From: Myxococcota bacterium
GTDB lineage: Bacteria; Myxococcota_A; UBA796; SXON01
NCBI GenBank assembly: GCA_040386535.1
Contig: JAZKFH010000022.1
Location: 51,247 to 83,246 of the forward strand
Direction of reading: 5' to 3'
Length of the DNA stretch: 32,000 nt
Shown: one piece after another, positions 1 to 16,068 of the stretch
Numbering within the stretch: the first letter of the stretch is position 1
Layout: each line of letters starts with the position of its first letter
Notes under the pieces: model-generated
Told to the model about the DNA's origin: nothing
The model's input: only the letters and a program-made list of their open reading frames with translations
The model's database searches: none
Position numbers and translations under genes: made by a program

Positions 1-1902
1 CAAGAGCTTCTGGCCGCAAGTACGGATGAGGTGTTGAGTCATGACAACCTCACGTCGCAAGGAAATGCCGAGTATCGCATCCAATTCGAGGGTACCGAGT
101 TCAAGGGGACCTATAAGCCTTCGCCCGTCAACTTGCGTCGGCTGATCGAAGCAGGCCGTGTGATGGCAATGGGGAGGACGCTGCGGTACCTTCGTTTCCT
201 TCGTGACTACAAGTACTTCGAAATCAATGAGCTCTGGGATGACGTCTCCATCAGCGGCTTCGGCGATGAAAAGCTTTATGTGGTGCAAACCCTCCCAGAG
301 GTTGTCCAACGCTGCATGTTGATGACCACCGATCCTGGCGACCTCGTCCTCGATCCGACGTGCGGATCAGGCACCACCGCGTATGTCGCCGAGCAGTGGG
401 GCCGCCGCTGGATCACCATCGACACGAGTCGCGTTGCTGTCTCCATTGCACGCCAACGCGTCCTCACCGCTCGCTTCGAGCACTTCAGAACTAAGGGCCA
501 CACACCTGAATCGGGCTTCGTCTACAAGACCGTGGCACACGTGAAGCTGGGAAGCATCGCCCAGAACACCAACCTCGACCCTATCTTCGCCCGCCACCAG
601 CCCCTCCTCGACGCCGCCCTCACCCGCGCAAACACGTCGCTGAAGAACGTCGCCCCAGGCCTCCGCCGAATCCTCGCCGACAAGCTCGCCGACAAGACCG
701 CGAAGGAAGGCAAGCGCGCCGTCACCGACGCCGACACTCGCCGCTGGATGCTCCCGAAGGACGCCTTCGAACACTGGACCGTCCCGTTCGACACCGATCC
801 CGACTGGCCCGAGTCCCTCCAGAACGCCGTGACCGGCTACCGCGGCGCGTGGCGCGCCAGGATGGACGAGGTAAACGCGTGCATCGAGCGTAACGCCGAC
901 CAGGAAGAGCTCGTCGACCAGCCCGAGGTGGTCAAGGGCGTCGTCCGCGTCTCCGGCCCCTTCACCGTCGAGGGTGTGCGTCCCGAGGAGCTCTCGCTCG
1001 GCGAGGACGGCCTTTTCGACGCCACCCCCAACGAGGAGGAGCCCGAAGACAGCGTGCTCCTCGCCGCCGAGCGGCCCCCGGCTCCCTACGGCGACGAGGC
1101 ACGTGACCTCGGCAACCTGCACGCCTACCTCGCCCAGATGGTCGACCATCTGCGCCGGGACGGCGTCACCTTCCCCAACAACAAGCATCGGGCATTCGCG
1201 CGGGTCGATCCGTTCAACCAGTCCGGCTCGCTGGTGCACGCCGAGGGCGCGTGGGAGGGCACCGATGCGGACCAGCCGAGCACCGTAGCCATCGGGTTCG
1301 GCCCCCAGTGCGGCCCGGTCACCGCGCGTCAGGTCGAGGAGCTCATCCGCGCCAGCCGCCGCTACGACGACCTGGTCATCGCCGGCTTCAGCTTCGAGGC
1401 GGATGCCTCGGCCTACATTAAGGAGAACCCGCACCCGAAGCTGCGCATCCACCAGGCCCACATCCGCCCCGACATCAACCCGGGCATGGACGGGTTGCTC
1501 AAGAACACCCCCAACAGCCAGCTGTTCACCGTGTTCGGCACCCCGGAGATCAAGCTCTCCCGGGATGGGGACGAGTGGGTGTGCGAGCTCGAGGGCGTCG
1601 ATATCTACGACCCGGTCAACAACGTGGTCCGCTCCACGAAGGCCGAGAAGGTGGCAGCGTGGTTCCTCGACAGTGACTTCGACGGGCGCTGCTTCTGTGT
1701 CACCCAGGCCTTCTTCCCCGATCAGGACGCGTGGGAGAAGATCGCCAAGGCCCTGAAGGGCTCGGCCGACCCGGAGGCGTTCGCTGCCTTCTCCGGCACG
1801 ACGTCGGTGCCCTTCAAGGCCGGCCGCCACAAGCGTGTCGCCGTGAAGGTGGTCGATCCGCGCGGCAACGAGGTCATGGCCATCCGCGCGTTGGGGCGCT
1901 GA
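1..1902 (+). CDS. mod: DNA amino-methyltransferase (N6-adenine/N4-cytosine class, Type III Mod-like), 5' end outside the window, with a ~480-aa C-terminal extension
   Basis: Frame 1 is open from nt 1, with no stop before the GTG at 31 used by the ORF track, so the gene is cut by the window edge. It carries the AdoMet-binding motif I segment GDLVLDPTCGSGTTAYVAEQWGRRWITIDTS (DPTCGSGTT at about nt 352-378). This is preceded by YVVQTLPEVVQRCMLMTT, as in Type III Mod proteins. The catalytic DPPY-type motif is expected upstream of the window. The TGA stop at 1900-1902 lies 1 nt before the res-like ATG. Confidence 0.85.
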   Translation, partial: QELLAASTDEVLSHDNLTSQGNAEYRIQFEGTEFKGTYKPSPVNLRRLIEAGRVMAMGRTLRYLRFLRDYKYFEINELWDDVSISGFGDEKLYVVQTLPEVVQRCMLMTTDPGDLVLDPTCGSGTTAYVAEQWGRRWITIDTSRVAVSIARQRVLTARFEHFRTKGHTPESGFVYKTVAHVKLGSIAQNTNLDPIFARHQPLLDAALTRANTSLKNVAPGLRRILADKLADKTAKEGKRAVTDADTRRWMLPKDAFEHWTVPFDTDPDWPESLQNAVTGYRGAWRARMDEVNACIERNADQEELVDQPEVVKGVVRVSGPFTVEGVRPEELSLGEDGLFDATPNEEEPEDSVLLAAERPPAPYGDEARDLGNLHAYLAQMVDHLRRDGVTFPNNKHRAFARVDPFNQSGSLVHAEGAWEGTDADQPSTVAIGFGPQCGPVTARQVEELIRASRRYDDLVIAGFSFEADASAYIKENPHPKLRIHQAHIRPDINPGMDGLLKNTPNSQLFTVFGTPEIKLSRDGDEWVCELEGVDIYDPVNNVVRSTKAEKVAAWFLDSDFDGRCFCVTQAFFPDQDAWEKIAKALKGSADPEAFAAFSGTTSVPFKAGRHKRVAVKVVDPRGNEVMAIRALGR

Positions 1903-1903
1903 C

Positions 1904-4900
1904 ATGGCACGCCCTCCCCGTTCCGCGAATCCGAGCGCCAACCCCGGGCCTGCCGACGACTGGGTCCCCACCCAGCCGGTTGCCAACCCGATCCTCAATC
2001 GCCCCTACGACGAGCCGACGCGCCACTGGCTCTACGAGAAGGGCATCCCGCGCGAGGTGCCAACCCGCCGGCCCGCCAGCTATTACTACATCACCAAGAA
2101 GATCGGGACCCGTCAGGAAGGCCTGTGGGCCGAGGAGCGGGCGGACCGGCTCGAGCTCGTCAATCGGCTCCGCGCGGACGTCGGGCGGTGGCGGGCGGCC
2201 AACTACAAGGGAGCCTCGAACACGACCAAGGCGCTGTTCGCCTACTGGTTCCATCCCGATCGGCCCCGCCGGCTGTTCTTCTGTCAACGCGAGGCGGTGG
2301 AGACCCTCATCTACCTGCTGGAGCTCGGCATCCCCGGCCACCTCGGGCGCTCGGGGTTCCGCAAGTTCGACCTCGACGCCGAGGCCATCGCTGCGCTCCT
2401 CGTGGGAGGCAAGCCGGCCTTCGTCGCTGCCGACGCCGAGCACTGGCCGCGCTTGGTGGATCCCGCAGTGGAGCTCCCCATCGCGCTCCGTCGGCTCGGC
2501 TGCCGCATGGCGACCGGCTCCGGGAAGACGCTGGTCATGGCCATGCTCATCACCTGGGCGTTCTGCAACCGTGGTGTGAACGGCGCCTCGACCCAGTACC
2601 CCAACGCGGTGCTGGTGTGCGCGCCCAACCTGACCGTGCGCACCCGCCTCCAAGTGCTCCGCCCCGGCGAGCCCGGCAACTACTACGACCTGTTCGACCT
2701 GGTGCCGCGCGCCTTCGCGGACCTGTTGGGGATGGGGAAGGTGCTCGTCACCAACTGGCACGCCTTCGCGCCCAAGAGCGAGCACCGCGAGGGAGACACC
2801 ACCTTCCCGGTCGTGCAGAAGGGCGAGGAGACGCCCGAGGCGTTCACCCGTGACCGCCTCGCGGAGCTGGCCCACCGCCTGCCCATCCTCGTGCTCAACG
2901 ACGAGGGGCACCACTGCTGGCGGCCCAAGCCCGACGCCACGCTGGACCTGAAGGACCTCTCGCCCGACGAGAAGGCAGCCGCGACGGAGGATGCCGAAGA
3001 GGCGCGGGTGTGGCTCGCCGGCCTGGACCGCATCAACAACAGCGGCCTTGCAGGAAAGGGCCTCCCCGGCATCCTCGCCACCATCGACCTCTCCGCGACA
3101 CCCTTCTACCTTGGCAACAGCGGGTACCCCGAGGGCAGCCCCTTCCCGTGGCTGGTATCGGATTTCGGCTTGGTCGACGCCATCGAGAGCGGCATCGTCA
3201 AGGTGCCCCGCATGCCCGTTGGCGACAGCGAGCGGAACAAGGACGACGCTGGACGACCCGACCCGAAGTTCTTCCGCCTGTGGAAACACGTCATCGACAA
3301 GATGACGCCGAGCGACAAGGTGGGGAAGCGTTGGAAGCCGGAGTCCCTGTACGGTGCGGCGGAGTCCGCCTTGGCTACCCTGGCCTCGCAGTGGAAGATC
3401 CTCTACGAGGAGATGCGCCTCCGCGCCGGCGGCGCCGAGTTCCTTCCGCCGGTCCTCATCGTGGTGTGTGACAACACCGAGCTGTCCAAGCTCGTCTTCG
3501 AGATGATCAGCGGCGAGCGCGTGAAGTCCGTGCCCGACGAGGAAGGAGTCATCAAGGCGACCACCGTGTTCGAAGGAAGCAAGTTGTTCCCCGAGCTCGC
3601 GAACAGCGAGGGTACGCGCCACACCATCCGCATCGACTCGAAGCTGCTCGGCAAGCTCGAGGGCGCCGACGGCCAGACCCGCGACGAGGCGGCGCTCGCG
3701 CTGCGCACGCTCATCGACACCGTCGGCAAGCGCGGGCTCCCAGGCGAGCAGGTGCGGTGCGTCGTGTCGGTCTCGATGCTCACCGAGGGGTGGGACGCCA
3801 ACAACGTCACCCACATCCTCGGCATCCGCGCGTTCGGCACCCAGCTGTTGTGTGAGCAGGTGGTCGGCCGCGGCCTGCGTCGCATGAACTACGAGGTGAA
3901 CCCCGAGGGGTTCATGGAGCCAGAGTACGCCGACATCTACGGCATCCCCTTCTCGCTCATCCCGTTCCAGAAGACCCCGGAAGGAAAGGGGGAGAACACC
4001 CCCGAGTACCACCGCGTCTACACAGTCCCCGGGCGCGAGAAGCTGCGCCTCACGATGCCCATCGTGGAGAGCTACACGTACGATCTGCGCAGCAGCGGCA
4101 TCGAGTGTGACGTCGACACCCTGGAGGGGATGATCGTCAACGTGGAGCCCACCGAGGTGTTCCTGTCGATCACGCGCGGCTACGAGGAGGAGGGCGCCCG
4201 GGTCGACTCGGGCGACTTCATCCGTCAGACCCGCGCCGAGTTCTACGAGCAGACGCGGTTCCAGCAGGTGATTTTCCGGATCGCGCAGCAGATCACGGAT
4301 GACCTCGTGATGGGTGTGCGGGAGGGGGTTCCCACCCAGCTCGTCAAGGAGACGCTGCTCGCGCGCCATCAGGTGTTTCCGGACGTGGTGCGGATCCTCG
4401 GAGCGTACGTCGAGAAGCGGGTCACGTTCGGCCCGGGAGTGGACCGGCGCGAGCTGGCACTGGAGCGTTATGCCCGGCTCGTCCGAGAGCGGGTCCGCGC
4501 GGGGATCTACCCCGCCGCGGGTAGCAAGGAAGCGCCGCTGCTCCCCGTAGTCAACACCTTCCAGGAGACCACGAGCACCGACGGTGTGGACGAACAGACC
4601 ACGCGGCCCACCGTCCCGCTCGTCAAGAGCGAGCTCAACGCTGCCGTCGTGCTGAGCGAAGGCAAGGGGGGCGACATCGGGGAGGTGCGCGCCATCGAGG
4701 TTCTCGAAGACCTCGATCGTGTCGAGGCCTTCGCGCCGAACACCCGGAAGATCGGCTTCCAGATCCCGTGGGAGTACCTCGGCCACCCGCGCCGCTACGA
4801 GCCCGACTTCCTCGTGCGCATGCGCGGGGGCACCATCGTGGTGTTGGAGATCAAAGGCGGCAAGGGCGAGCTTCACGGCGAAGACGAGGTGCTCGCCAAG

Positions 4901-5485
4901 AACGCCGCCGCGCGCAAGTGGGTGGCGGCGGTCAACAACGCCAAGAGGTACGGCACCTGGGCGTTCGAGATCTGCCGCGAGCTTCCCAAGCTGCGCGAGC
5001 AGCTCATCCAACACTCGGCGGAGCTGCCCGGCTATCTCCCCTACCGTCGCGTCGAGCCCGATGCCGCCGAGCGCTACCGAAGCTGCGTGCCGATGTTGGG
5101 CCTCCTCGGCGCTGTGCGTCGCTGGCAGAAGCCGGCGCTGATGGACCTTGGCGATCCCAACGTCGAGTGGGTCACCTGGAACGGCGCGCCCGCCTTCGCC
5201 GACGGCATGTTCGTCGCACCCGTGGCGGGCAAGTACGCGCTCTTCCAGCCCTCCGCGGAGGAGCCCGCCGAGGGCGGCTCCTACCTCCTCTACAACGCCG
5301 GCATCGCCGATCCCGATACCGACGCACCCTTCACGGTGCGGACCTTCACGGTCGAGCCGCCCACGCCGGAGCGCTCCCAGGCGCGGATCGTGCTCAAGGG
5401 CCTGCGGGAAGGTGACGTGCCGATCGTCATTCCGGGGTCGGGGGTGGTGAAGGTGGTGGCTTCGTTTGCGGGCTGGGTGCGTTGA
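1904..5485 (+). CDS. res: Type III restriction Res-like SF2 helicase-nuclease (1193 aa) with an extra C-terminal domain
   Basis: Motif I is RMATGSGKTLVMAML (from about nt 2504). Motif II is LVLNDEGHHCW (DEGH). The motif V/VI region is SVSMLTEGWDANNVTHILGIRAFGTQLLCEQVVGRGLRR. A PD-(D/E)xK-type core follows, YEPDFLVRMRGGTIVVLEIKGGKGE (about nt 4795-4870). Gene order is mod then res, as in Type III R-M systems. About 200 aa follow the nuclease core. Confidence 0.85.
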   Translation: MARPPRSANPSANPGPADDWVPTQPVANPILNRPYDEPTRHWLYEKGIPREVPTRRPASYYYITKKIGTRQEGLWAEERADRLELVNRLRADVGRWRAANYKGASNTTKALFAYWFHPDRPRRLFFCQREAVETLIYLLELGIPGHLGRSGFRKFDLDAEAIAALLVGGKPAFVAADAEHWPRLVDPAVELPIALRRLGCRMATGSGKTLVMAMLITWAFCNRGVNGASTQYPNAVLVCAPNLTVRTRLQVLRPGEPGNYYDLFDLVPRAFADLLGMGKVLVTNWHAFAPKSEHREGDTTFPVVQKGEETPEAFTRDRLAELAHRLPILVLNDEGHHCWRPKPDATLDLKDLSPDEKAAATEDAEEARVWLAGLDRINNSGLAGKGLPGILATIDLSATPFYLGNSGYPEGSPFPWLVSDFGLVDAIESGIVKVPRMPVGDSERNKDDAGRPDPKFFRLWKHVIDKMTPSDKVGKRWKPESLYGAAESALATLASQWKILYEEMRLRAGGAEFLPPVLIVVCDNTELSKLVFEMISGERVKSVPDEEGVIKATTVFEGSKLFPELANSEGTRHTIRIDSKLLGKLEGADGQTRDEAALALRTLIDTVGKRGLPGEQVRCVVSVSMLTEGWDANNVTHILGIRAFGTQLLCEQVVGRGLRRMNYEVNPEGFMEPEYADIYGIPFSLIPFQKTPEGKGENTPEYHRVYTVPGREKLRLTMPIVESYTYDLRSSGIECDVDTLEGMIVNVEPTEVFLSITRGYEEEGARVDSGDFIRQTRAEFYEQTRFQQVIFRIAQQITDDLVMGVREGVPTQLVKETLLARHQVFPDVVRILGAYVEKRVTFGPGVDRRELALERYARLVRERVRAGIYPAAGSKEAPLLPVVNTFQETTSTDGVDEQTTRPTVPLVKSELNAAVVLSEGKGGDIGEVRAIEVLEDLDRVEAFAPNTRKIGFQIPWEYLGHPRRYEPDFLVRMRGGTIVVLEIKGGKGELHGEDEVLAKNAAARKWVAAVNNAKRYGTWAFEICRELPKLREQLIQHSAELPGYLPYRRVEPDAAERYRSCVPMLGLLGAVRRWQKPALMDLGDPNVEWVTWNGAPAFADGMFVAPVAGKYALFQPSAEEPAEGGSYLLYNAGIADPDTDAPFTVRTFTVEPPTPERSQARIVLKGLREGDVPIVIPGSGVVKVVASFAGWVR

Positions 5486-7380
5486 GCGACCCCAAGGAGC
5501 GAAAGGGGCGAACACGGAAGCCGCGGCGCCCACCAGAGCCAGAGGATCCCATTCAGGTAGGCGAGCTGCGGTTCTCTACCGTGTTCGGCCTCCTGCTTCG
5601 CGTGGTGGCCGTCGAGAAGGACACATGCTTTGTGGAGCACGTCCCGTCGGGGCGTACATGGCGCTCGGATGCGGTCGGCACCATCCAGAAGGCCCCGAAG
5701 GTGGCGGAGGGCGGCTTCCGTTGGCGGTTCGCGCACGACGGGCCCGAGCAGGTCCTGACGGCGGGCCCCGAGCGCATTGCCGAGTGGCTGATGCTCGACG
5801 AGCGGGCGCGCGGGTGGACCGTCCTTCGTGCGCGCGCCGTGGGTGAAGCCACCGCCGGCCTGCCCGAGGGGGCGGCACTCGAGACGCGCCTGCTGGATTA
5901 CCTCGAGGGGAGCGACGAGTGGGGCCGAGAGGGCACGGGAGCCGAGAGGGGCTTCGTGCGCGGCGGTCACGTGAGGGACTGGCGGGAGCGTTGGATCGAG
6001 GCCGAGCTACCCGTGGGCTTTGCCGGCGGTGAAAAGATTCAAGACGAAGACGCGGCCGTGGCTGCCCTGCGCCTGCTGTGCGAGGCAACAGCACCAGACC
6101 TGCCCTTCCTCGGGCGCGTTCGCACCACGCGTTGGTTGCCACCAACGGTGCGCGCCGGGGCGCTGGAGCGCCTGGTCGCGGTCTGGAAGGAAACGCGGCG
6201 ACGTACCGGCTTTCGCCAGGTGCGCGAGGAAGCCTTGCTGCACATGCTCAAAGACTCCCCCGACCTGGCGGAAAGCATGGCGCGGGAGCCTGCCGTGTCA
6301 CTGGCGGTCCGGAAGGCTGCGGTGGAACAGCTGAAGGATGGAGACGAGGCCATCCGCTCCGTGATCCGCGAGGTGAGCCGCCCCGCGAACAAGGCCGGCG
6401 CGGTGCGGGTGGCGGGCCAGCTTGCTGCCCTGGCCGAGAGTCCGGCGGTCATCGTCGAGTGTGTCGCGGCATGCATGAGCAACCGTGCGGATGCAGAGAT
6501 CACCAAGGAGACGGCCGACCTCCTGGACGAGCGCCTGGAGACGCTCGACCGCACCCCGTTGCTCCTGGAGGCGGCACGCGGAGCGCTCGCGGGTGGGGCA
6601 CTCGGCGGAGCGGTTCGCGACTGGCTCAACCTCCTGGGCGGCGACGCGGCGGTCTGGGAGATCGCGGAGGCGTGGGGAACCGTTCACCGGCTGCGTGGCG
6701 AAGGGGGCCTCGCTGCCCTGTCGATCACCACGCCGGAGCTCGAGGCCGGGTTCACGCGGTGGATCGAGCAGGCGCTCGCGCTTCGGGACGACTGGGAGGC
6801 GCCGGGCGCGTTGCCCTCCTTGAAGGAAGGCTCGTTCGCTCAACTGGTAAAGGGTCACGCGGAAGGCGCTCGGCTGACTCGGAACCTCGAGTGGTTCACT
6901 CGCACGGTGGGGGCGCTGGCCGAGCTGGTCGCGCGCATCCATGCGGAGAACGGTCTGCTCCTGGCGAAGGTGGACGACAAGCAGAACGCCGAGCGGGTGC
7001 TTCGCGGAGACGACGTAGAGCGGATCCGCGCCGACCGCGGAACGCTCCTGGCGAGCGCTCGTGACGAAGTGGCCGACGAGCGGCGGGCCGAGCGGCGAAC
7101 GGTCGCGAAGATCCTCGCCGAAGTACAAACAGCCGTGGGCCGCACGCGCGAGGCTACTCCGGCTACGGCGTTGGACGCATTGGAGCGGCGTATGGTAGAG
7201 CTGGCAGCGCGTCTCGACATGACCTTCGTTGGGCGCGTCGGGGAACGGGCCCCATCTGACCCGGCACTGCATCAACTGGCTGCGGGGGTGGCGTCGGAAG
7301 GGACGATACGTTCGGTCGGCATCCGCGACGTACACGAGCTCTTGGTCAAAGGCAAAATTGGGCCGTTGGAGACGAACTGA
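5482..7380 (+). CDS. Hypothetical 632-aa mostly helical protein with a GrpE-like C-terminal segment
   Basis: This is the longest ORF in this interval on the sense strand of the operon. The proposed TTG start at 5482 overlaps the res stop (TTGA); GTG 5581 is an alternative start. The N-terminus is basic (KERKGRTRKPRRPPEPEDP). The C-terminal part has charged coiled-coil-like helices followed by LDMTFVGRVGERAPSDPALHQLAAGVASEGTIRSVG (from nt 7213). This resembles the GrpE pattern G-x-x-F-D-P-x-x-H-x-A...V.S. The GrpE assignment is tentative. Confidence 0.6.
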   Translation: MSDPKERKGRTRKPRRPPEPEDPIQVGELRFSTVFGLLLRVVAVEKDTCFVEHVPSGRTWRSDAVGTIQKAPKVAEGGFRWRFAHDGPEQVLTAGPERIAEWLMLDERARGWTVLRARAVGEATAGLPEGAALETRLLDYLEGSDEWGREGTGAERGFVRGGHVRDWRERWIEAELPVGFAGGEKIQDEDAAVAALRLLCEATAPDLPFLGRVRTTRWLPPTVRAGALERLVAVWKETRRRTGFRQVREEALLHMLKDSPDLAESMAREPAVSLAVRKAAVEQLKDGDEAIRSVIREVSRPANKAGAVRVAGQLAALAESPAVIVECVAACMSNRADAEITKETADLLDERLETLDRTPLLLEAARGALAGGALGGAVRDWLNLLGGDAAVWEIAEAWGTVHRLRGEGGLAALSITTPELEAGFTRWIEQALALRDDWEAPGALPSLKEGSFAQLVKGHAEGARLTRNLEWFTRTVGALAELVARIHAENGLLLAKVDDKQNAERVLRGDDVERIRADRGTLLASARDEVADERRAERRTVAKILAEVQTAVGRTREATPATALDALERRMVELAARLDMTFVGRVGERAPSDPALHQLAAGVASEGTIRSVGIRDVHELLVKGKIGPLETN

Positions 7381-9206
7381 TGGATCTGGACAAGCTGCGG
7401 ACATTCCTCTCGGAGCTCGATTTCTCCAGCGTGAGCGAGGAGGAGCGGGATGTCGCGCTCCTCCTCGGACAGGCGCGGGCGGCAGTGGATGCCCTGCGCG
7501 AACAGCGCGAGCGAGCGAATTTTCGCGACCGGCTGATGCAGGCGCACGCGGTGGTGGAGCGGCAGCTGCGCGCGGCGATAGCCCACGCCCTCGGAAACCT
7601 CGATGCGGGCACATACCTGGACCCAACATGGCCCGGGAAACTCGACAGCTTTGAAGCCGAACTGCAGGACGACGCTCGGTTGCTCATTTGGCACGAACTC
7701 GTCACGCCGATCGCCTATCCCACCTCGGCGGACGGAGAGGGCGCTGTGCTGCACGCGCCCAGCCCGAGCCTGCCGGCTCCCCCTCCGCCACCGACGCCCG
7801 TCAGCGCAGACTTGATCGAGCGGATCAGGGCGTTGAAGCCAATCGCCAGCTCGGCGCCAAGACACGGTGCGGGCGTTTGGGGTGTGGACTTCGGCACCGC
7901 GCGAAGCAAAGTGGTGTTCCGGCCACGCGGTGGGTTCACACAGGCGGCCGACTCCGTCGTGGCGTGGGATGTCCCGAGCGTGCTCGCTGTCGAGGAGGAT
8001 GGTGGCGCAATTGAGTTTGGTGAGGCGGCCGAAGCGCGCCGGGGCAAGCAAGGGTGGAAGCTGGTCACGAGCTTGAAGCGCCACATTGTGGGGCGCCGTG
8101 TCGACCCTTACCGGCTCCCGCCCCGCATGACCACTGAGGGGCTCGCGACCCTGTACATGGCGTGGCTCTGCCACGAGGCGCTCCGCAGGGCCGATTTGGG
8201 CGCATCTCCGATGGACCTTCCGATGAACCTGTCCATGCCCCTCGTTGACGCCTCCGTTGCCAATGACGGGCTGCGAGCGCCGTTCGTAGAAGGCCCACGC
8301 ACCTACGACATCTGGCTTTCGTACGCACTGCGTGCCGCCCAGCTCATCGCGCTCACGTTCGGCAGGGAGGAATTCCCCAGCTCCCAGACCGTGCTCCTCG
8401 ACGCCCTGGAGCTATGGTCTCGTCAGAATTGGGAGTCGGTGCGCCGGAGCGCGGCCACCACCAGCGAGCCCGCGGCTGTAGTCGGTGACGTGAATGTCAC
8501 CGAGCTTCCTGCCGGCCTCACCATGCTGGTAGACTGCGGGGCGGGCACGACGGACGTCTCCGTGTTCTGGCGTCGGGGCGCCCACGTCTTTCGCGTGGTC
8601 GAATGCTCCGTGGTCGTTGGTGGCGATCAGATCGACGACGCCATCGTGCTCCGGGTGGTGCGCGAATTTCCGGGACTGAAGGACAGGGAGGGGGACGTAC
8701 GCACGTGGGCCCGGGCTGCAAAGCGGGACATACTGGAGGGCGAGGCAAGCTTCGACCCCGCGGAATTCGAACTGCCCGGCTTGGCGTTCGACATTACGGC
8801 CGAGGATGTCGCGCCAGGAGTCGCGGCGTTGGCCGGGGGCGTGCATACGGTGGTCGCGCGCGCAGCCGATCAAGCGTTCGCAAAGCTCCTCGAGACGTCC
8901 CTGAACGGCGCCGTCGAGCTCTCGCGGGCTCGAGAGCTTCAGGCCGTCTGGTTGATTGGCGGCTCCTCGGTGGTCGGTGCGGTTATGAGCAGCGTCGAGG
9001 CTGCGCTCAGGGGGAGCAACGTCGTCGGCGCCTCCCCGGCACCACTGGCCCCATCCGGTTTGTATGCGGCCTGGAAGCCGGAACGATACCGCCTGCTCGC
9101 TGTCGCGCTCGGTGCCTCGCGTCCAGATCTCGCCCGGCCGGCGCTGCTCCCGCCGGATCAGGCGGATGTGGCGGTGGGCCTCCACCACACCGACAAGGAC
9201 GCATAG
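7380..9206 (+). CDS. Hsp70/actin-fold (ASKHA) ATPase, DnaK-like nucleotide-binding domain with a ~165-aa N-terminal extension and no recognisable substrate-binding domain
   Basis: The ATG at 7380 overlaps the upstream TGA by 1 nt (TGATG), and GGAG lies 8 nt upstream. Phosphate-1 is VWGVDFGTARSKVVF (nt 7881-7901; compare DnaK GIDLGTTNS). PSVLAVEEDGGAIEFGEAA matches the PSVVAF..G..VG..A pattern. Phosphate-2 is LVDCGAGTTDVSVF (nt 8529-8558; compare DLGGGTFDVS). VVGGDQIDDAIV matches LGGDDFD. The adenosine motif is VWLIGGSSVVGAV (nt 8949-8969; compare LVGGSTRIP). A Pro-rich linker PSPSLPAPPPPPTPVS lies at about nt 7759-7806. Confidence 0.75.
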   Translation: MDLDKLRTFLSELDFSSVSEEERDVALLLGQARAAVDALREQRERANFRDRLMQAHAVVERQLRAAIAHALGNLDAGTYLDPTWPGKLDSFEAELQDDARLLIWHELVTPIAYPTSADGEGAVLHAPSPSLPAPPPPPTPVSADLIERIRALKPIASSAPRHGAGVWGVDFGTARSKVVFRPRGGFTQAADSVVAWDVPSVLAVEEDGGAIEFGEAAEARRGKQGWKLVTSLKRHIVGRRVDPYRLPPRMTTEGLATLYMAWLCHEALRRADLGASPMDLPMNLSMPLVDASVANDGLRAPFVEGPRTYDIWLSYALRAAQLIALTFGREEFPSSQTVLLDALELWSRQNWESVRRSAATTSEPAAVVGDVNVTELPAGLTMLVDCGAGTTDVSVFWRRGAHVFRVVECSVVVGGDQIDDAIVLRVVREFPGLKDREGDVRTWARAAKRDILEGEASFDPAEFELPGLAFDITAEDVAPGVAALAGGVHTVVARAADQAFAKLLETSLNGAVELSRARELQAVWLIGGSSVVGAVMSSVEAALRGSNVVGASPAPLAPSGLYAAWKPERYRLLAVALGASRPDLARPALLPPDQADVAVGLHHTDKDA

Positions 9207-9210
9207 CCAG

Positions 9211-10557
9211 ATGCCCCTCCCGTTCCTCACCGCCCTCGACCCGCAAGCCCGCGTCGCCGGCTCGCGCGACCCGCTCGGCGTGCAACCGATCTGGGGCCAC
9301 CTTGGCCGGGAGCTCGTCTCCAACCTGACCACGGTCGCGACATCGGTCCGCGGCTTCACCACGCTGATGCTGGGCCTCCACTACGCATCCCGGCTGGTCG
9401 ACGAGGCGGGCCACGACGAGGCTCAGCGGATCCGCTACTTCCTGAAGTTTGAACAGATGGTCGCGTGGAGCCGCTACGCCTGGCAGGACGAGACAGGTGA
9501 CACGGTCGAGGGGATCCGGGGCATTCGACGGGTACGGCGTACCTGGGAGGGCGGGGAGCGGAAGCCGCCGCTCGGCCTCGGTCCCGACGCGCAGATCCTG
9601 TCAGACCAGAAGACCTATGGGCTCTGGGGTCTCTTCTCGATGCCCGCGCGCGACTCCCGCCTCCGCGAGCGCGTCTCCGCACGGCTCACGGAGCCCGCCC
9701 GGGAGCACCTCTTGCCGCGCCTCGATGCGGCGCTCTCCGCCGAGGGGATACGGAACGACGCTGTCGTGATCGATTTGCTCGGACGCGACCAGCATTTCGA
9801 GCCCACGGGCCGCCACAAGGCTCTCGGACGCGCGCTGGCGGCGATGACCAAGCCTGCGTGGTCGGGAGAGGAGGAGGTGTTCTACCTGGATCACCTCGTC
9901 CAAGCGGGGAGGGGCGCCGACGGCCGGCAGGCGCGCCTCTGGGGCCACCTTGCGACCGTGAATGACCGTGACGGCACCTGGAAGGCAGGCTTCGGCATGG
10001 AGGAACTCCGCCGGGTCCGGACCGCGGCCGGCGCAGCCGGAGACACCGACATCGTCGAGCGGCTGACCTGGATCGCTGATGTGGAGGCCGTTCTCGCGCC
10101 CGCCGGGCTCCTGTTCTCGACGGTGCTCGGCGCGCATGGACAGCGCGTGGCCGACGTGGCGGCCGAGGTCGAAGCGCGCTGGGGGGCCGGCCTGGGCCAC
10201 GTGGACGTCGACGGCGTGCGCGCCGCCATTCCCCAGGTCGCGGCGATTGCCGCGGACGGAACCGCCGAGCGCCTCGACGCGCTCAGCGTGGCGTTCCGGG
10301 ACGGCGCATGGGCGGAGGCGATCACGCTGGTGATTGCACAGAACAAGGCCGTCATGGAGGCGCGCCGCGCGGGCCCTTGGGCCACGGAAAAGGCCGGCAC
10401 GCTCGACGTGCGCTTCCGTACCGACGGGGATGGGCTCGCTGTCGCGGCAGACCTGCCCGATCTCTGGGTCAACCCCTACTACCTGAGCGCGCTCAAGCAT
10501 GTCGGCGGCTCGCTGCTGCGGCGAGGCGTCCGGGAGACGAGCGTGGACGGTGAGTAG
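9211..10557 (+). CDS. Hypothetical protein (448 aa), no domain recognised
   Basis: The ATG at 9211 lies 4 nt after the upstream TAG (9204-9206). The ORF-track start at 9064 would overlap the Hsp70-like gene by 143 nt and adds an Arg/Ser-rich peptide, so I prefer 9211. The N-terminus is MPLPFLTALDPQARVAGSRDPLGVQPIWGHLGRELVSNLTTVATSVRGFTTL. I found no catalytic motif. Confidence 0.6.
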   Translation: MPLPFLTALDPQARVAGSRDPLGVQPIWGHLGRELVSNLTTVATSVRGFTTLMLGLHYASRLVDEAGHDEAQRIRYFLKFEQMVAWSRYAWQDETGDTVEGIRGIRRVRRTWEGGERKPPLGLGPDAQILSDQKTYGLWGLFSMPARDSRLRERVSARLTEPAREHLLPRLDAALSAEGIRNDAVVIDLLGRDQHFEPTGRHKALGRALAAMTKPAWSGEEEVFYLDHLVQAGRGADGRQARLWGHLATVNDRDGTWKAGFGMEELRRVRTAAGAAGDTDIVERLTWIADVEAVLAPAGLLFSTVLGAHGQRVADVAAEVEARWGAGLGHVDVDGVRAAIPQVAAIAADGTAERLDALSVAFRDGAWAEAITLVIAQNKAVMEARRAGPWATEKAGTLDVRFRTDGDGLAVAADLPDLWVNPYYLSALKHVGGSLLRRGVRETSVDGE

Positions 10558-12550
10558 CCCCACCCCCGAAGTCCTCACCGCGCAGCTGCGCAAGGCGATC
10601 GGCGGGCGCTCGGTGCGCGCGGCGGTGTTCACCACGTTCCCCTTCGATCCGGAGTTCTTCGAGCTCTTCGTCCTACCGGCCCTGTTCGAGCGCGCGTGGT
10701 CGCGGGATCCGAACGTCCGCCGCGCGCAGTTGGAGGAAGCCCTCCGGGACGTGGACAACGTCGCGGTGTACTACGACCGCGGGCAGTTCGACGGTGGGCT
10801 GGTCGGGCTGGACTACACGCGATTCGGCGTGGCTCGGCGGACGGGCTGCTTCCACGCAAAACACCTCCTCCTCCTCGTCGAGCGCCCGCCTTCGTCCAGC
10901 GCGGGTCCCGTGCGCGGGGAGCACGCCCTCCTCGTCGTCACCACGTCGGCGAACCTGACCCGCTCCGGGTGGTGGGAAAACGTCGAGGCCGCGCAGATCG
11001 AGGAGATCCGGGCGGGGGTGCCCCATCCAATGCGGTCCGCGCTCCTGGACGATGGCGGTGCCCGCGGGCTTGTCCGTCGTATCCGCGAACACGACCGGAC
11101 CGAGGTCGCACACAGCGCCCTCGACGCGATCCGTGACTTCCTGCTCCGCGACGTGCCGACAGGCACGGCCCCGGGTCCGGTGCTCTGGGCCGGCCGCGGC
11201 ACCTTCGCCGCCTTCCTTGCCGCCCACGTCCGGCCCGGCCTACGGCTCGAAATCGTCGCGCCCTACGTTGAGGACATCGAGGCCGCTCCGACGCTCGGCC
11301 GGCTGCTCGACGCTGTCCGCCCGGCGGAGACCCGCATCCACCTTCCGATCGACAAGGATGCACACGCGGCGGTGAGCGAGGCCTACGCCCGCGCCGTCGC
11401 AGCGCTCCCAGGCGTGAGCTGGGGCGAGCTCCCGGCTGCCCTCACCCACTGGACGAAGGAGGCGGGCGGCGGCCACCGGTTCACTCACGCGAAGGTGTAC
11501 CGGTTCTTCGACGACCGTCGGGAGGTGCTCGTGGTGGGGTCGGTGAATCTTTCGGCGGCGGCACACTCCGACGCGAGCGCGGGCAATTTCGAGTCCGCGG
11601 TGTTGGTGGAAACCGTGGCGAACGCGCGCCGGGACTGGTGGATGAGCCGCCGGAACACGCTCCCGGAGCACTTCGCGCCGCGCGTCGGCGAGGAGGAGGC
11701 CGTCCGCGGGCGCGCGCCTCCCCTCCACCTCCGCTACGACTGGCGCACCGACCTGCTCGCCTACTTCTGGGAGCCCGGCGAGGCCGCCGCCGCCGCGGTG
11801 GACGTCTCCACTGGAGCCGTAGGCTTCCGCATCACGCCCATCGTTGTGGGCGTGTGGGTACCCGTGCCGCCGGAGGTAGTCCTCGGCTTGAGGGACCGAC
11901 TGCGCGCCAGTGCCTGCGTCTCCGTCACGATTGAACTCGAGACCTTTCGCGTCTTGGTACGGGAGGAGGGCATGCAGAACCGGCCGCCGCTCGTGTGCGA
12001 CCTCACGCCCGAGCAGATCCTCGAGTATTGGGCCCTGCTCTCCCAGGAGCAGCGCGACGCGTTCCTCGAGCAGCACGGCTACCGCCTGCCCCAGCTGTCC
12101 GAGGATGGTGCTCCGCCCGCGCCAACCGCCGTCGAGGGGTCCGGCACAACCCTGTTCGACCGATTTGCTGGTATCTTCCATGCATTCTCGTGCCTGCGCG
12201 AGCATGTTCAGAACGCGCTCCAATCGGGCCGGAAGAAGGAGGCCGCGTACCGTCTCCTCGGGCGCAAGCATGACTCGCTCGGCGCGCTCGTGGAGAGGGT
12301 GCTCGACGACGAATTGGGGGACCTCACCTCGCGGTACGTCCAGCTGCTCTGTGCACGGGAGGTGACCGACGCCGTCCTCGCAGCCCATCCGGCGTGGGCG
12401 GCGGAGCACTCGGTGGCGGTTGTCGAGCTGCGCGCCCGCCTCGACCGGGTCGCCGAACTGCGCGCGCGCCTTTGTCTTCCGGAGGACGGCGCCGCCTTCA
12501 TCGAATGGTTCGAAGGTGAATTCTTTGGACGACCAGAGGTGTCCGCGTGA
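10550..12550 (+). CDS. Phospholipase D-family (double HKD) protein, putative nuclease, with a ~270-aa uncharacterised C-terminal region
   Basis: There are two HKD-type motifs in one chain. The first is CFHAKHLLLLVE...LLVVTTSANLTRSGW (HAK at nt 10853-10861). The second is RFTHAKVYRFFDDRREVLVVGSVNLSAAAH (HAK at nt 11486-11494). The start is ambiguous: GTG 10550 gives an 8-nt overlap with the upstream stop (GTGAGTAG), while ATG 10499 gives a 59-nt overlap. The stop at 12548-12550 is firm. Confidence 0.8.
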   Translation: MSSPTPEVLTAQLRKAIGGRSVRAAVFTTFPFDPEFFELFVLPALFERAWSRDPNVRRAQLEEALRDVDNVAVYYDRGQFDGGLVGLDYTRFGVARRTGCFHAKHLLLLVERPPSSSAGPVRGEHALLVVTTSANLTRSGWWENVEAAQIEEIRAGVPHPMRSALLDDGGARGLVRRIREHDRTEVAHSALDAIRDFLLRDVPTGTAPGPVLWAGRGTFAAFLAAHVRPGLRLEIVAPYVEDIEAAPTLGRLLDAVRPAETRIHLPIDKDAHAAVSEAYARAVAALPGVSWGELPAALTHWTKEAGGGHRFTHAKVYRFFDDRREVLVVGSVNLSAAAHSDASAGNFESAVLVETVANARRDWWMSRRNTLPEHFAPRVGEEEAVRGRAPPLHLRYDWRTDLLAYFWEPGEAAAAAVDVSTGAVGFRITPIVVGVWVPVPPEVVLGLRDRLRASACVSVTIELETFRVLVREEGMQNRPPLVCDLTPEQILEYWALLSQEQRDAFLEQHGYRLPQLSEDGAPPAPTAVEGSGTTLFDRFAGIFHAFSCLREHVQNALQSGRKKEAAYRLLGRKHDSLGALVERVLDDELGDLTSRYVQLLCAREVTDAVLAAHPAWAAEHSVAVVELRARLDRVAELRARLCLPEDGAAFIEWFEGEFFGRPEVSA

Positions 12551-15500
12551 TTGATATCGCCCCCCTCTCCCCCGACGCGGCGCGGTCGCTCCTCGACTTC
12601 CGGGGCCGGAGCGCTGCCGCCTCTGCGTTCGCGGACGCCCAGCTGGAGGGGGCAGTCGCGCTACACAACATCCTCGCACGCGAGGGGTTTGCCTACCTCG
12701 CCGACGAGGTGGGGATGGGAAAGACGTACGTAGCGCTCGGGGTGATGGCCCTGCTGCGCCACGCCCACCCCGGGCTGCGAGTGCTCTACATCGCGCCGAA
12801 GGAGAACATCCAGCGGAAATGGTACAAGGAGCTTGGTAACTTCGTCGCAAACAACTGGCGCAACGACGATTTCCGCGTCCGGGCGCTGGGCCGGCCGGGC
12901 TTCGATGTCGTGATGGCCGAGAGCCTTCAGGACCTTGCAGCCAAGGCGCGGCTCGATGCCAACCGCGATGTCATTGTCCGGATGACGAGCTTCAGCGTCG
13001 GCCTCTCCAAGGAGGCGACCACGTGGAACGCGAAGCGGGACCAGCTCCTCCGCCTGTTCCCATGGCTCGACCCCGCGCAGTTCGCCCTCTACAGCAAGAA
13101 GGCGTTCAAGGACGCCTATGCCCGCGCCGTCAACGTCGCGCTGCCGGTGTACGATTTGGTGATCGTTGACGAGGGCCACAACCTGAAGCACGGCTACAGC
13201 GAGCGCGTAGCGGCCCGCAACCGCGTGCTCGGCCTGGTCCTCGGGCGGGAAGACGCGCAGGTGCCATACCTCGACGGCGGGGGCCCCCGCGCGGACCGGA
13301 TCCTGGTCCTCTCTGCGACTCCGGTCGAGGTCGGCTGGGGCGACCTCTGGAACCAGATGAACGTGCTCGGGAAGGGCCACCTCGCCCCGATCCTCCGGCG
13401 CGGCGAAGAAGCGGGAGTGTCGGAGGGCGAGCGCCTCGCGGCAGCGCGGCGGTTCATCGTCCGCCGCCTCACCGGCATCCCGATCGGCGGACAGATTCAC
13501 ACCAAGAACATGTACCGGCGAGAGTGGCGACAGGGGGGCGTCGCGACGCATGATGAGCCGCTTCCGCTATCGGACACCCGCCAGCGGCTAATCGTCGCGC
13601 TCGCCCAGAAGAAGGTGATGGACGTGCTCTCGGCCCGGCGGGATCCGGCGGCGGGCCGATTCTCGCGCAGCTTTCAAATGGGCATGCTCGCCTCGTTCGA
13701 GAGCTTCGCCGCGACAGCGCGCGTGGAGATCAAGGGGGAGGACGGCGAATCAGAGCAACGGACTTTCGAGGAGTCCGACCAGGCGGAGCGGAGCGAAGAC
13801 CGCCAGGGGGTGGACCGTCACGCCATCGACGGGATGGCACGGCGCTACCTCGAGCGCTTCCACACCTCGCTTCCCCACCCGAAGATGGACGCTGTAGCGG
13901 CCGCCGCCGCGGAGGCGATGCTCGACCGGGGTGAGAAGTCGCTGATCTTCGTGCGCCGCATCGCGAGCGTCCCCGAGTTGTGCGCGAAAATCGCCCAACG
14001 GTACGACGATTGGGTGTTCGCCTACCTCGAGCGGGAGCTCCGCACCGGGCCAGTCTCCGATCTGCGCCAGGCGGTCGCGGAGTACCAGCTGGCGAAGCTG
14101 CGCGAACGGGACCGACACGGAGGTGCAGCGGCAGACGCCGACGAGGACCACGGCGCCGGCGACTCCTTCTTCGCCTGGTTCTTCCGCGGGGAGGCGCTCG
14201 CGGGAGAGGCCAGTTTTCGGGGACGCGCCGCCGCGTTCCGCAAGAACCGGCTCCGCGGTGAAGGGTCGGTTCACAGCACGCTGCTCGAGGACAACTACGC
14301 ACGGTTCGTGCTGGGCGCCGACCCGTTGCGTGCGCTGGCGGGACGCCTCGGGGCCACGGCTCCCGTTCTCCTCCGCAAGGGCGCCTGGCTGGCCTTCCGG
14401 CGCCCCCACCAGGTCCGGTATCCGCGCGCCCAGGTCTTCACGGCCTACCAGGAGGCGGCCCTCCGTCTCGTCGCGGACGGGAAAGACAGCGTCGCCGCGG
14501 AAGCCCGCGCCATTCTACGACGCACGTTCGCCGACCCGCCCGCGGACACCGACGGTCCGATCCCAGAGGGCTTTCCGCGCCCCGACGACATTCTCGGCGC
14601 GCCGACTCTCTTCTCGGAGCTCGAAGCCCGGCCTGCACTCTGCGCGCAGCTCTGGCCGGCATCCACCGCGTCGACCTTCGAGGCGCGGTTCGTCGAGCGT
14701 GAGCGGCGACGCCAACTCCTGGTGAGCGCGATGCTGCTCGGGCACGCCTACATCGATCTCTGGCTCCTCGCCGTGCGTTCGCTTCGCTCGCTCGCCGCTG
14801 GGGAGCGCGACGAGGATGGCGCCGCTTCTCTCGCGATCGAGTTTCTCACTCGGCTGGAGGAACAACAGGGTCAGCCGGGGCTCACGTCCTGGCGCGAACT
14901 CCACGATATCGCGGCGCACTTCCCGCTGCTTTGCGACGTGAACTTCGACCAGCTCCGCGACACGTCCCTTTCGGAGCTTCCAAAGTACTACCAGCGCACG
15001 CTCGGACGGCAGACACCAGTGGCCGGCATGTTCGGCACGGTGAACACCCAGGTCGTCCGGCAGTTCCGCATGCCGGGCTACCCCTATGTGCTCGTGACGA
15101 CCGACCTCCTCCGCGAGGGCGAAGACCTCCACCCGTTCTGTGCGCACGTCGTCCACTACGGTATCGAGTGGACCTCGTCGGCAATGGAGCAGCGCACCGG
15201 TCGCGTGGATCGCATCGGCTCGTTGACCCACCGCCGCCTCACCCGGCCAGGCCTCGTCACGGCCGAGGGGACCGACCGGCTCCAGGTCCAGTACCCGCAC
15301 CTCACGGACACAGTGGAGCTGTTCCAGGTGCGGGAAGTGTACCGGCGCATGAACCGCTTCGTCGACCTGCTGCACGACCGCGCGAGCGGCGCGGCGAGCG
15401 AGCGGAGCGACCTCGACATCGCCCGCGTCATGCACCAGGTAGCCGATGTGGCGCCGATCACCGGCACGCTGACCACGCGCTTTGCGATCAAACCCGAGTG

Positions 15501-16068
15501 GTGCGAGGGCGGACCGTCGTCGCCCGTTGCCGCCCGGGAGGAGGAGATCCTTAAATTGTTCGCGGACCAGTGCGACGCGCTCGATCGCGAGTGCTCCATC
15601 ATCTGGCGCGACCGCGACGGCGCCCACCATCGCCTCGGAACGGCGTGGATCGCGGACCGTGAGCTCTGCACGCGAGGCGCCGACACGTCAGGGCGCCGTC
15701 AGCAGCCGTTCCACGCGTTCCTGCTCCCCGCCCGGCGCACAGGCCGTGTGCTCCTGCGCATCGTCAGCCCGGTCGGCATCGTGGCGGAGCGCGACGCCGT
15801 GACCGTCTCCCGCATCGGCGTGCTCCAGCGAGCAATGCCGTCTGTGGCCGTGTTCTCCGGTGCCCCGCCGCGCACCGGCGATGGCTACAACCTCGCCGCG
15901 CGCGTGGACCTGCCGTTCGGTGCAGGGCTTACGCAACACGCGGAAGTCCGCGACGTTCTCCGCCGCGTCTGTGTTTTCGCCGATCAGATGGAGCAGGCCC
16001 TCTTGCGACACGACCTCCCGATCGAGCACTTCGTGGTCCAACTTCGACGGGAGCGCGGCGATGTCTGA
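12547..16068 (+). CDS. SNF2-like SF2 helicase/translocase (1173 aa) with a ~300-aa C-terminal extension
   Basis: The GTG at 12547 overlaps the upstream TGA (GTGA), and AGAGG lies 7 nt upstream. Motif I is LADEVGMGKTYVALGVMALL (nt 12703-12726). Motif Ia is YIAPKENIQRKWYKEL. Motif II is LVIVDEGHNLKH (nt 13168-13179). Motif III is LVLSATPVE. Motif V is VLVTTDLLREGEDLH. Motif VI is WTSSAMEQRTGRVDRIGS. Confidence 0.85.
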   Translation: MIDIAPLSPDAARSLLDFRGRSAAASAFADAQLEGAVALHNILAREGFAYLADEVGMGKTYVALGVMALLRHAHPGLRVLYIAPKENIQRKWYKELGNFVANNWRNDDFRVRALGRPGFDVVMAESLQDLAAKARLDANRDVIVRMTSFSVGLSKEATTWNAKRDQLLRLFPWLDPAQFALYSKKAFKDAYARAVNVALPVYDLVIVDEGHNLKHGYSERVAARNRVLGLVLGREDAQVPYLDGGGPRADRILVLSATPVEVGWGDLWNQMNVLGKGHLAPILRRGEEAGVSEGERLAAARRFIVRRLTGIPIGGQIHTKNMYRREWRQGGVATHDEPLPLSDTRQRLIVALAQKKVMDVLSARRDPAAGRFSRSFQMGMLASFESFAATARVEIKGEDGESEQRTFEESDQAERSEDRQGVDRHAIDGMARRYLERFHTSLPHPKMDAVAAAAAEAMLDRGEKSLIFVRRIASVPELCAKIAQRYDDWVFAYLERELRTGPVSDLRQAVAEYQLAKLRERDRHGGAAADADEDHGAGDSFFAWFFRGEALAGEASFRGRAAAFRKNRLRGEGSVHSTLLEDNYARFVLGADPLRALAGRLGATAPVLLRKGAWLAFRRPHQVRYPRAQVFTAYQEAALRLVADGKDSVAAEARAILRRTFADPPADTDGPIPEGFPRPDDILGAPTLFSELEARPALCAQLWPASTASTFEARFVERERRRQLLVSAMLLGHAYIDLWLLAVRSLRSLAAGERDEDGAASLAIEFLTRLEEQQGQPGLTSWRELHDIAAHFPLLCDVNFDQLRDTSLSELPKYYQRTLGRQTPVAGMFGTVNTQVVRQFRMPGYPYVLVTTDLLREGEDLHPFCAHVVHYGIEWTSSAMEQRTGRVDRIGSLTHRRLTRPGLVTAEGTDRLQVQYPHLTDTVELFQVREVYRRMNRFVDLLHDRASGAASERSDLDIARVMHQVADVAPITGTLTTRFAIKPEWCEGGPSSPVAAREEEILKLFADQCDALDRECSIIWRDRDGAHHRLGTAWIADRELCTRGADTSGRRQQPFHAFLLPARRTGRVLLRIVSPVGIVAERDAVTVSRIGVLQRAMPSVAVFSGAPPRTGDGYNLAARVDLPFGAGLTQHAEVRDVLRRVCVFADQMEQALLRHDLPIEHFVVQLRRERGDV

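Follow-up and report, generated by a model that had tools for sequence, protein, structure and literature searches.

What does an Hsp70-type ATPase without a substrate-binding domain do in a restriction operon, and is the protein encoded directly upstream of it its nucleotide exchange factor? These questions are raised by a 32,000-nucleotide stretch of DNA from a Myxococcota bacterium (GenBank assembly GCA_040386535.1, contig JAZKFH010000022.1, positions 51,247 to 83,246), referred to here as the window. Its plus strand is occupied from position 31 to approximately 19.7 kb by tightly packed defence genes, among them the two adjacent genes studied here, which we call A and B (Table 1). A preliminary description of this DNA, made from the sequence alone, had noticed a GrpE-like tail on the 632-residue product of A and an Hsp70-fold ATPase encoded by B, and had taken the setting to be a defence operon. 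The setting was borne out by PADLOC matches and by the neighbours of related loci. Drawing directly on domain homologies, motif conservation, the strict pairing and translational coupling of the two genes, and their defence-island context, we consider it moderately likely that A and B together constitute a dedicated ATPase switch of two proteins, which would derive from the DnaK-GrpE chaperone pair and be used in phage defence.

GrpE resemblance of the C-terminal region of protein A

The open reading frame (ORF) of gene A translates as quoted in the preliminary description, ending with ...ALDALERRMVELAARLDMTFVGRVGERAPSDPALHQLAAGVASEGTIRSVG..., and the E. coli GrpE segment that had been cited for comparison, PLDPNVHQAIAMVES, is correct: the query matches chain A of PDB entry 1DKG over 197 residues, with only G122D differing. 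The identical spacing of D-P-x-x-H-Q-x-x-A-x-V-x-S in A and E. coli GrpE therefore holds. For a comparison at the family level, the C-terminal 165 residues of 15 proteins of the A family were aligned with hhalign to 83 GrpE sequences, three from PDB alignments and 80 from species genomes. This gave a single collinear alignment of 114 columns with a probability of 87%, a P value of 4e-6 and a score of 43.3, in which residues 515/517-632 of A align to residues 65/67-196 of E. coli GrpE. The aligned region covers the distal half of the long GrpE helix, the two helices of the four-helix bundle and the whole beta domain. As controls, 100 column-shuffled GrpE alignments scored 11.7 on average (standard deviation 2.0, maximum 20.9), the reversed GrpE alignment scored 13.0, five other chunks of the A alignment of 120-165 residues scored 10.8-19.7 against GrpE, and the B family scored 20.3.

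Two A subfamilies with approximately 20-30% mutual identity each reached GrpE in the same register (78% and P=1.8e-5 for one, P=3.2e-4 for the other), the beta part of the tail alone gave P=1.3e-3, and small alignments of 5 A and 3 GrpE sequences gave P=1.9e-4. The GrpE score increased with the depth of the alignments, from 29.6 to 32.4 to 43.3, as is expected of real homology. When only the window protein was compared with the GrpE profile, it ranked first among 179 six-frame segments of the window, albeit narrowly (29.6 versus 27.7 for the next-best segment, P=0.0026). By these scores the single-sequence match of A is marginal and not beyond chance, whereas the family-level match is clearly beyond chance, so that the evidence for GrpE sits at the level of the family.

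The alignment matches several characteristic positions. Like GrpE, the tail of A has counterparts of K.G (K136.G138 in GrpE, [DR]LG in A), of (F)DPxxHQ (D150-P151-x-x-H154-Q155, corresponding to D593-P-x-x-H597-Q), of the glycine of KGY (G177, corresponding to G613) and of the [KR]-P of RPA (R186-P/A187, corresponding to K623-[P/G]). All GrpE structures compared have D150, P151 and H154; among 5 A homologues D593 is invariant, and the proline and histidine are mostly conserved. At the entry to the beta domain the window protein has SDPALHQL, which we counted as an instance of the motif (F/L)DPxxH(Q/E)A. The C-terminal strand has the consensus VGIxDxxGxLVxKPxVxP in A and GYxxxxRxLRPAxVxV in GrpE (including G177, Y178, R183 and R186); the glycine, the [KR]-P and the alternating hydrophobic residues are kept, the tyrosine is absent, and the window protein itself has KG, not KP. 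Taken at the family level, homology of the A tail to GrpE appears quite probable.

The remainder of A looks like a scaffold. In the A alignment G27, L29, R30, P55, G78, R80 and R82 are invariant, and an AlphaFold2 model places strands at residues 31-54 and 79-84. This model was built from a 2-sequence alignment, and its sole confident part is residues 251-390 (block pLDDT, the predicted local distance difference test score, of 70-92), within the predicted alpha-solenoid. DSSP assigns helices to residues 452-508 and 512-553 of the model, with low confidence, the second of which continues into the GrpE-like region, and the motifs NAxRVL and RxDRxxLxxSAR are conserved in these long helices. A Foldseek search with the model returned nothing at E<=1e-3 and only weak matches to generic helical-repeat proteins, because the model is poor. 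The A sequence had no match in Pfam, NCBIfam, PADLOC or PDB sequence searches. Members of the family were gathered from the loci of B homologues and by an exhaustive search of 1.84 billion representatives, which found only 13 relatives at E<=1e-3, and a word-indexed homologue search with the A alignment added no members. The NCBI gene model of A comprises 599 amino acids and starts 33 codons past the TTG at 5482; this start is probably wrong, because it removes GELRF, a motif kept in all homologues. A divergent A homologue of 781 amino acids, P0018 (locus L095, 6001-8346), has an N-terminal DUF559 (Vsr-like endonuclease) domain with a borderline Pfam E value of 6.6e-4, which suggests that the A scaffold can carry a nuclease effector.

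The ATPase domain of protein B

As the preliminary description had stated, B carries all Hsp70/actin ATPase motifs, namely phosphate-1 (GVDFGTARSK, residues 168-177), SxKR (K233), EPAA (E363), phosphate-2 (DCGAGTTD, 385-392) and adenosine (GGSS, 527-530). D170, K233, E363, D385, T390/T391, D392 and G527-G528 are invariant in 11 B sequences, and the residues of B line up with K70, E171 and D194/T199/D201 of DnaK and with its phosphate-1 and adenosine motifs. The aligned motifs of the family read WGxDFGT, PSxxAV, SxKR, EPAAV, DxGAGTTD, GGSS and AVALGAS. With a profile of the 11 sequences, the best match in PDB was DnaK (6.3e-11), in two segments that extend over both lobes, whereas MreB was matched (2.9e-9) in one segment in the phosphate-2 region only. 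The profile contains the Hsp70-specific DnaK-length loop after strand 2, PSxxA and the catalytic lysine of SxKR, and the family also keeps GGSS and the AVAxGA ending in alignment with DnaK. A homologue with 31% identity to B (locus L096) scored 28.0 bits with Pfam HSP70 (cut-off 20.6) versus 18.7 bits with MreB. Judged from these profiles, B appears closer to Hsp70/DnaK than to MreB at the family level. Classification as a sugar kinase or as a member of another ASKHA clade was rejected, as no such match appeared in any search.

The substrate-binding domain, lid and hydrophobic linker of DnaK are missing from B by Pfam and PDB profile searches alike, and the AlphaFold2 model of B (pLDDT 66.5, predicted TM score 0.60) is without a beta-sandwich. 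The absence of a DnaK-type peptide-binding domain had been noticed before; the approximately 60 residues then thought to follow the nucleotide-binding domain are in fact about 25, since AVALGAS, near residue 583, marks the end of this domain. No significant Pfam or PDB match extends past the nucleotide-binding domain, and beyond it there was only a non-significant 1.1-bit stretch, at DnaK 474-506. Further differences from DnaK are the C-terminal DKDA tail and a 160-residue N-terminal extension, consisting of a helical domain and a Pro-rich linker, which the preliminary description had overlooked. The DKDA tail is located at, or 1-2 residues from, the C-terminus in most full-length members, and is kept even in the 31%-identical homologue (near 4158-4175 of L096). 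The EEVD tail of eukaryotic Hsp70 docks on TPR co-chaperones. The DKDA tail recalls EEVD, and the partner protein A contains an alpha-solenoid region.

The family is rare, unannotated and known only from metagenomes. Only 8 clusters out of 5.8 billion belong to the B family; their sources are metagenomes or metagenome-assembled genomes (MAGs) throughout, and neither PLSDB (72,556 plasmids) nor IMG/VR contains a relative. The hosts of the A-B family are Myxococcota or 'Deltaproteobacteria' MAGs. Public names for B proteins are 'hypothetical', 'rod shape-determining protein' or 'actin-like ATPase', and the window protein itself (V4850_17800) is listed as 'hypothetical protein'. A metagenome scan with B yielded one good locus (L092), a distant ASKHA protein (L093), and a 1,952-bp fragment with 44% identity over approximately 50 residues (L094).

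Gene pairing, a proposed ATPase switch and its alternatives

An A-like gene is located directly upstream of a B-like gene wherever that region is visible, down to approximately 30% identity. The loci compared were the window, L001, L002, L003-L005, L006/L007, L092, L095, L096 and two contigs from JGI (the Joint Genome Institute). In the window the A stop codon and the B start codon overlap (TGATG), and across loci the start and stop codons of the two genes overlap or stand 0-13 nt apart. The A homologues are approximately 620-655 amino acids long, with the exception of the 781-residue P0018. For the same pairs of loci, identity is 32-38% for A versus 45-57% for B, thus A evolves faster. In every case the pair follows restriction or defence genes on their strand, across junctions that overlap or leave 2-52 nt, which points to co-transcription; in the window Mod and Res are packed tightly against A, and the Res stop codon overlaps the A start codon (TTGA).

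The upstream genes differ by locus, and all of them are restriction or defence genes. Type III restriction-modification genes precede A-B in 3 loci, with two different Res families, one in the window and L001 and another in L002. In L001 the Type III Res gene is directly upstream of A-B and the Mod region lies off the contig, and in L002 a Type III Res gene is followed by GmrSD and then A-B, with a methylase fragment also present. GmrSD is upstream of A-B in L002, in a JGI contig and in L095, where the order is a GmrSD_N protein, P0018 as the A protein, and a 667-residue B-like protein. L006 and L092 both have an AbiJ-like gene and a conserved protein of 410-412 amino acids upstream of A-B; L006 in addition has a KAP NTPase gene inserted before A, which is absent from the closely related L092, and L092 has a Type I HsdS gene upstream. 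The 410-412-residue protein (L006 1617-2852, L092 5309-6538) is encoded between the AbiJ-like gene and A-B, is 88% identical in the two loci and has no family match; it may be a further component in this clade. In the JGI locus, a helicase upstream of GmrSD-A-B has a faint Peptidase_S24 match.

In the switch that we propose, A would be a scaffold of approximately 630 amino acids with a beta-rich N-terminal region, an alpha-solenoid, a long coiled coil and, in its last ~115 residues, the functional core of GrpE. The protein would dimerise via its long helices, and its GrpE-like beta domain would dock in the ATPase cleft of B and control ADP/ATP exchange, making A a dedicated exchange factor, so that B could cycle without a J-protein-type partner. 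The N-terminal helical domain of B would stand in for the peptide-binding domain, and in phage defence the cycle would work as a switch or as a motor for remodelling. The most likely target or partner would be the restriction-type enzymes encoded upstream, here Type III Mod-Res and elsewhere GmrSD, the KAP NTPase or the AbiJ-like protein; alternatively, the cycle could be linked to a phage-derived trigger sensed by the variable N-terminal and solenoid regions of A. We infer from the sequences that A and B bind physically, that A has exchange activity, that the pair is linked to the nucleases and that it acts against phages. A more specific and rather speculative version is that the pair is an immune regulator of a previously unrecognised kind, in which a chaperone nucleotide cycle, without J protein or peptide-binding domain, has become a switch. 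Once phage interference is sensed, this switch would remodel NTP-dependent restriction enzymes (Type III Res, GmrSD, KAP NTPase), license them or serve as their backup, with the fast-evolving A scaffold (beta region and alpha-solenoid) as sensor and the DKDA tail docking on A as EEVD does on TPR.

The points that weigh against such a switch are best considered together with the other explanations that they would fit. The resemblance to GrpE might be convergent or due to chance, A then being a scaffold of coiled coil and alpha-solenoid whose small C-terminal domain has another origin, with no role in nucleotide exchange; in that case it may still bind B elsewhere, for instance through its solenoid on the DKDA tail. 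Pfam GrpE (PF01025) matched neither A at E<=0.1 nor five C-terminal fragments at E<=10, the A-tail profile found no GrpE in PDB at E<=10, and a hidden Markov model (HMM) of the 83 GrpE sequences scored no A homologue above 8.5 bits and detected none. Moreover, hhalign was run without secondary-structure scoring, and its P value would become borderline (E about 0.1) if corrected for ~25,000 Pfam families. The helical part alone fails to find the same register, and the long-helix signature A[DE]xENxR[RK]R of GrpE is not kept in A, the aligned segment being a conserved RxDRxxLLxSAR. The counterpart of E. coli GrpE R183 is variable in the A family, and the AlphaFold2 model of A has a mean pLDDT of 49.8, with residues 577-632 below 50. 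The marginal single-sequence score also fits a chance resemblance. This is nevertheless an unlikely explanation, given a family score that no control approached, an alignment that is collinear over three GrpE structural elements, the agreement in register of the second subfamily alone, the match of the beta part alone, and the location of the A tail next to the only protein family known to bind GrpE. The GrpE-like tail of the preliminary description thus stands as a C-terminus-specific family-level match in two subfamilies, and it fails as a Pfam or GrpE HMM match. For B the doubt concerns its class, as it could be a polymerising ATPase of the actin/MreB/ParM type with A as its adaptor, together forming a cytomotive or segregation module of a mobile element. 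The top Pfam match of the window protein alone is MreB_Mbl (31.3 bits, 1.3e-7, over the cut-off), ahead of HSP70 (20.3 bits, cut-off 20.6), so that the earlier assignment to Hsp70 rather than another ASKHA family holds for the family profile and not for this single sequence. In Foldseek searches with the B model, Hsp70 nucleotide-binding domains and MreB structures came out about equal, with MreB top or co-top (E 1e-11 to 1e-12, TM 0.5-0.6), and the public annotations of relatives likewise point to rod shape determination or actin. However, the MreB matches span only ~64-90 residues around phosphate-2: the Pfam matches to MreB_Mbl and HSP70 are both limited to this region (model positions 133-190 of 327 for MreB_Mbl), and the PDB MreB matches comprise B residues 355-467 only, not the whole ~330-residue MreB domain. 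The ATPase domain of ~420 residues is Hsp70-sized rather than MreB-sized and aligned to Hsp70 nucleotide-binding domains over 440-480 columns in Foldseek. Together with the DnaK preference and Hsp70-type features of the family profile, the lack of matches in PLSDB and IMG/VR and the position of the genes inside restriction operons, this makes a polymerising module quite improbable.

A further explanation accepts A-B as a genuine Hsp70/GrpE-type pair and takes it to be autonomous, either a module of its own for defence or stress or a private chaperone, which merely clusters with restriction genes without acting on or through them. The neighbours vary by locus, as the KAP NTPase of L006 and its absence in L092 illustrate, and the pair alone is the conserved unit. 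Between the window (5482-9206) and L001 (1-5416), identity is 52% for A and 47% for B versus 73% for the adjacent Res, which suggests independent histories; the pair may have evolved rapidly, or modules may have been exchanged. That the pair adjoins restriction genes could indeed be mere defence-island clustering, and at most loci an effector domain is recognisable in neither A nor B. The latter, which also counts against the proposed switch, makes an autonomous defence output hard to see, and the missing peptide-binding domain of B argues against a conventional chaperone. Since the same-strand arrangement and short junctions point to co-transcription, autonomy seems possible but doubtful, and we prefer the restriction-linked switch.

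The closest known counterpart is the canonical DnaK-GrpE pair (PDB 1DKG, 4ANI). As in that pair, the ATPase domain of B aligns to DnaK over both lobes with the catalytic residues kept, and A and B are encoded side by side. GrpE is a free protein of ~200 amino acids, whereas the GrpE-like part of A is the C-terminal fifth of a 632-residue protein, below Pfam detection and without ENxRRR. Unlike the canonical pair, A and B are accompanied by no J-domain protein, and they are located in a restriction operon rather than a heat-shock operon.

An Hsp70-type ATPase in a conflict setting has been predicted before. According to Kaur et al. 2020 (eLife, PMC7159879), HSP70 and its exchange factor, named simply 'GrpE' there, are predicted in GAP1-N2 GTPase-centred conflict systems, with an additional HSP70 'sans its peptide-binding domain' in some examples. 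The paper also describes FNIII proteins fused to DnaJ or TPR, and a distribution mainly in actinobacteria and firmicutes. Like the GAP1-N2 systems as presented there, A-B couples an HSP70 with a GrpE-type factor in a predicted conflict setting, and the combination is therefore less unusual in defence than the preliminary description had supposed. In A the GrpE-like module is part of a large scaffold. The partner genes of A-B encode restriction enzymes, and the pair occurs in Myxococcota or 'Deltaproteobacteria' MAGs. Pfam-based detection, applied to the window products and to the neighbouring genes at homologous loci, gave no match to a dedicated GTPase, FNIII or DnaJ domain. A second comparison is CnuD of Type III CoCoNuT systems (Bell et al. 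2024, eLife, PMC11090510), which has a nucleotide-binding and a substrate-binding domain, degenerate nucleotide motifs and predicted RNA binding; the associates of CnuD/CnuCD are the McrB GTPase and McrC, and a GrpE-like partner is not reported. Like CnuD/CnuCD, A-B combines an Hsp70-like ATPase with HEAT-like repeats and coiled coils in restriction-type defence operons, whereas in B the catalytic motifs are intact and the substrate-binding domain is lacking, and the helical repeats are on the separate protein A. McrB and McrC (DUF2357) had no match in the window or related loci. The only defence-database model touched by B is the B model of PDC-M61, an uncharacterised candidate system (PADLOC PDLC04731, E=1.2e-5), whose length is near that of B. 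This match is partial and weak (B residues 315-396 versus model positions 283-365 of 588), and protein A matches no PADLOC model at all.

In the searchable literature we found no description of the A-B architecture, that is a scaffold-fused GrpE-like domain and an intact Hsp70 with a DKDA tail and no substrate-binding domain, without J protein or GTPase, and linked to restriction. Thus, predicted conflict modules with Hsp70 and GrpE are already known, and what is new, as far as the sequences indicate, is the scaffold-fused, restriction-linked variant without J protein. If the proposed switch is correct, the pair would be a compact and tractable Hsp70/GrpE engine without substrate-binding domain and J protein, would bear on the repurposing of Hsp70 ATPase domains as switches, and would represent a chaperone-derived accessory module added to Type III and Type IV restriction systems. 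It would also offer a direct test of the prediction of Hsp70-GrpE cycles in prokaryotic conflict systems (Kaur et al. 2020). The A tail further illustrates that GrpE-like domains can hide, below the sensitivity of Pfam, at the ends of large uncharacterised proteins.

Feature map and neighbouring genes in the window

The features of A and B and the other genes of the defence island are listed in Table 1.

Table 1. Defence-island genes in the window and the regions distinguished in proteins A and B
Feature	Window position	Strand	Evidence or remark
Mod (Type III methyltransferase fragment)	31-1902	+	PADLOC MTase_III, 2.1e-83
Res-like helicase-nuclease	1904-5485	+	PADLOC REase_III, 5e-10
Gene A, 632 aa, scaffold protein with GrpE-like C-terminus	5482..7380	+	TTG start
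A residues 27-85, GELR[FY] motif and beta-strand-rich N-terminal region	5560..5736	+	Alignment, AlphaFold2 model
A residues ~221-400, stacked helical repeats (alpha-solenoid, HEAT/ARM-like)	6142..6681	+	AlphaFold2 model
A residues 452-553, pair of very long helices, probably a coiled coil	6835..7140	+	Low-confidence AlphaFold2 model
A residues 515-632, GrpE-like region	7024..7377	+	hhalign family alignment
A residues 593-598, DPALHQ, counterpart of GrpE D150-P151-x-x-H154-Q155	7258..7275	+	Alignment
Gene B, 608 aa, Hsp70-family ATPase without substrate-binding domain	7380..9206	+	ATG start
B residues 1-112, conserved N-terminal helical domain	7380..7715	+	AlphaFold2 helices 3-12, 20-75, 84-96, 99-112
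B residues 113-142, variable Pro-rich linker	7716-7805	+	Linker pLDDT below 50
B residues 165-583, Hsp70-type nucleotide-binding domain	7872..9128	+	Motifs, invariant residues
B residues 603-608, C-terminal tail HTDKDA	9186..9203	+	Family motif [ST]-x-[WYT]-D-K-D-A
PDC-M27 A/B/C, candidate defence system (PLD-like and SNF2 helicase)	9211-16068	+	PADLOC, up to 2e-67
NACHT/AAA-TPR STAND NTPase, 1150 aa	16294-19746	+	Weak Avs2-like PADLOC match; closes the defence island

The Mod product matches the PADLOC MTase_III model of 983 positions only from approximately position 411-537 onward, and its ORF begins, after an in-frame stop, only a short way into the window. Judged from this sequence, the methyltransferase of the window may be truncated, split or frameshifted, which would leave Res without a full-length partner. 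Res has a C-terminal extension of ~190 amino acids (4904-5482, residues ~1000-1193) following a PD-(D/E)xK-like EPD...EIK motif. This extension has no Pfam match and is conserved in L001; it could be the part that communicates with A-B. The preliminary description had reported no HPD tripeptide in the seven products; there is one, at residue 117 of Res, which was rejected as a J domain since it has no DnaJ match, and the claim survives in the sense that no J domain was detected in any product.

The likely ATG of PDC-M27, at 9211, is located 4 nt past the B stop codon on the same strand, giving a seven-gene run with the upstream genes. PDC-M27 is probably a separate neighbour of A-B, because it is missing from other A-B loci.

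Beyond the defence island, the minus strand carries a MukF-MukE-MukB-like condensin operon at 20970-27549 (Pfam MukB_N 1e-60, MukE/MksE, MukF). Assignment of these genes to a Wadjet system was rejected: PADLOC gave no Jet matches and a JetD-like protein was not found, so that the operon probably encodes an Mks/Muk condensin of housekeeping type. The MukE and MukF ORFs as called share ~700 nt, thus their start positions need revision. Finally, an AAA ATPase encoded on the minus strand at 29468-30937 matches PADLOC IetA (1e-27) and is adjoined by a 321-residue ORF without match (28503-29468), possibly forming an IetAS-like pair outside the main island.

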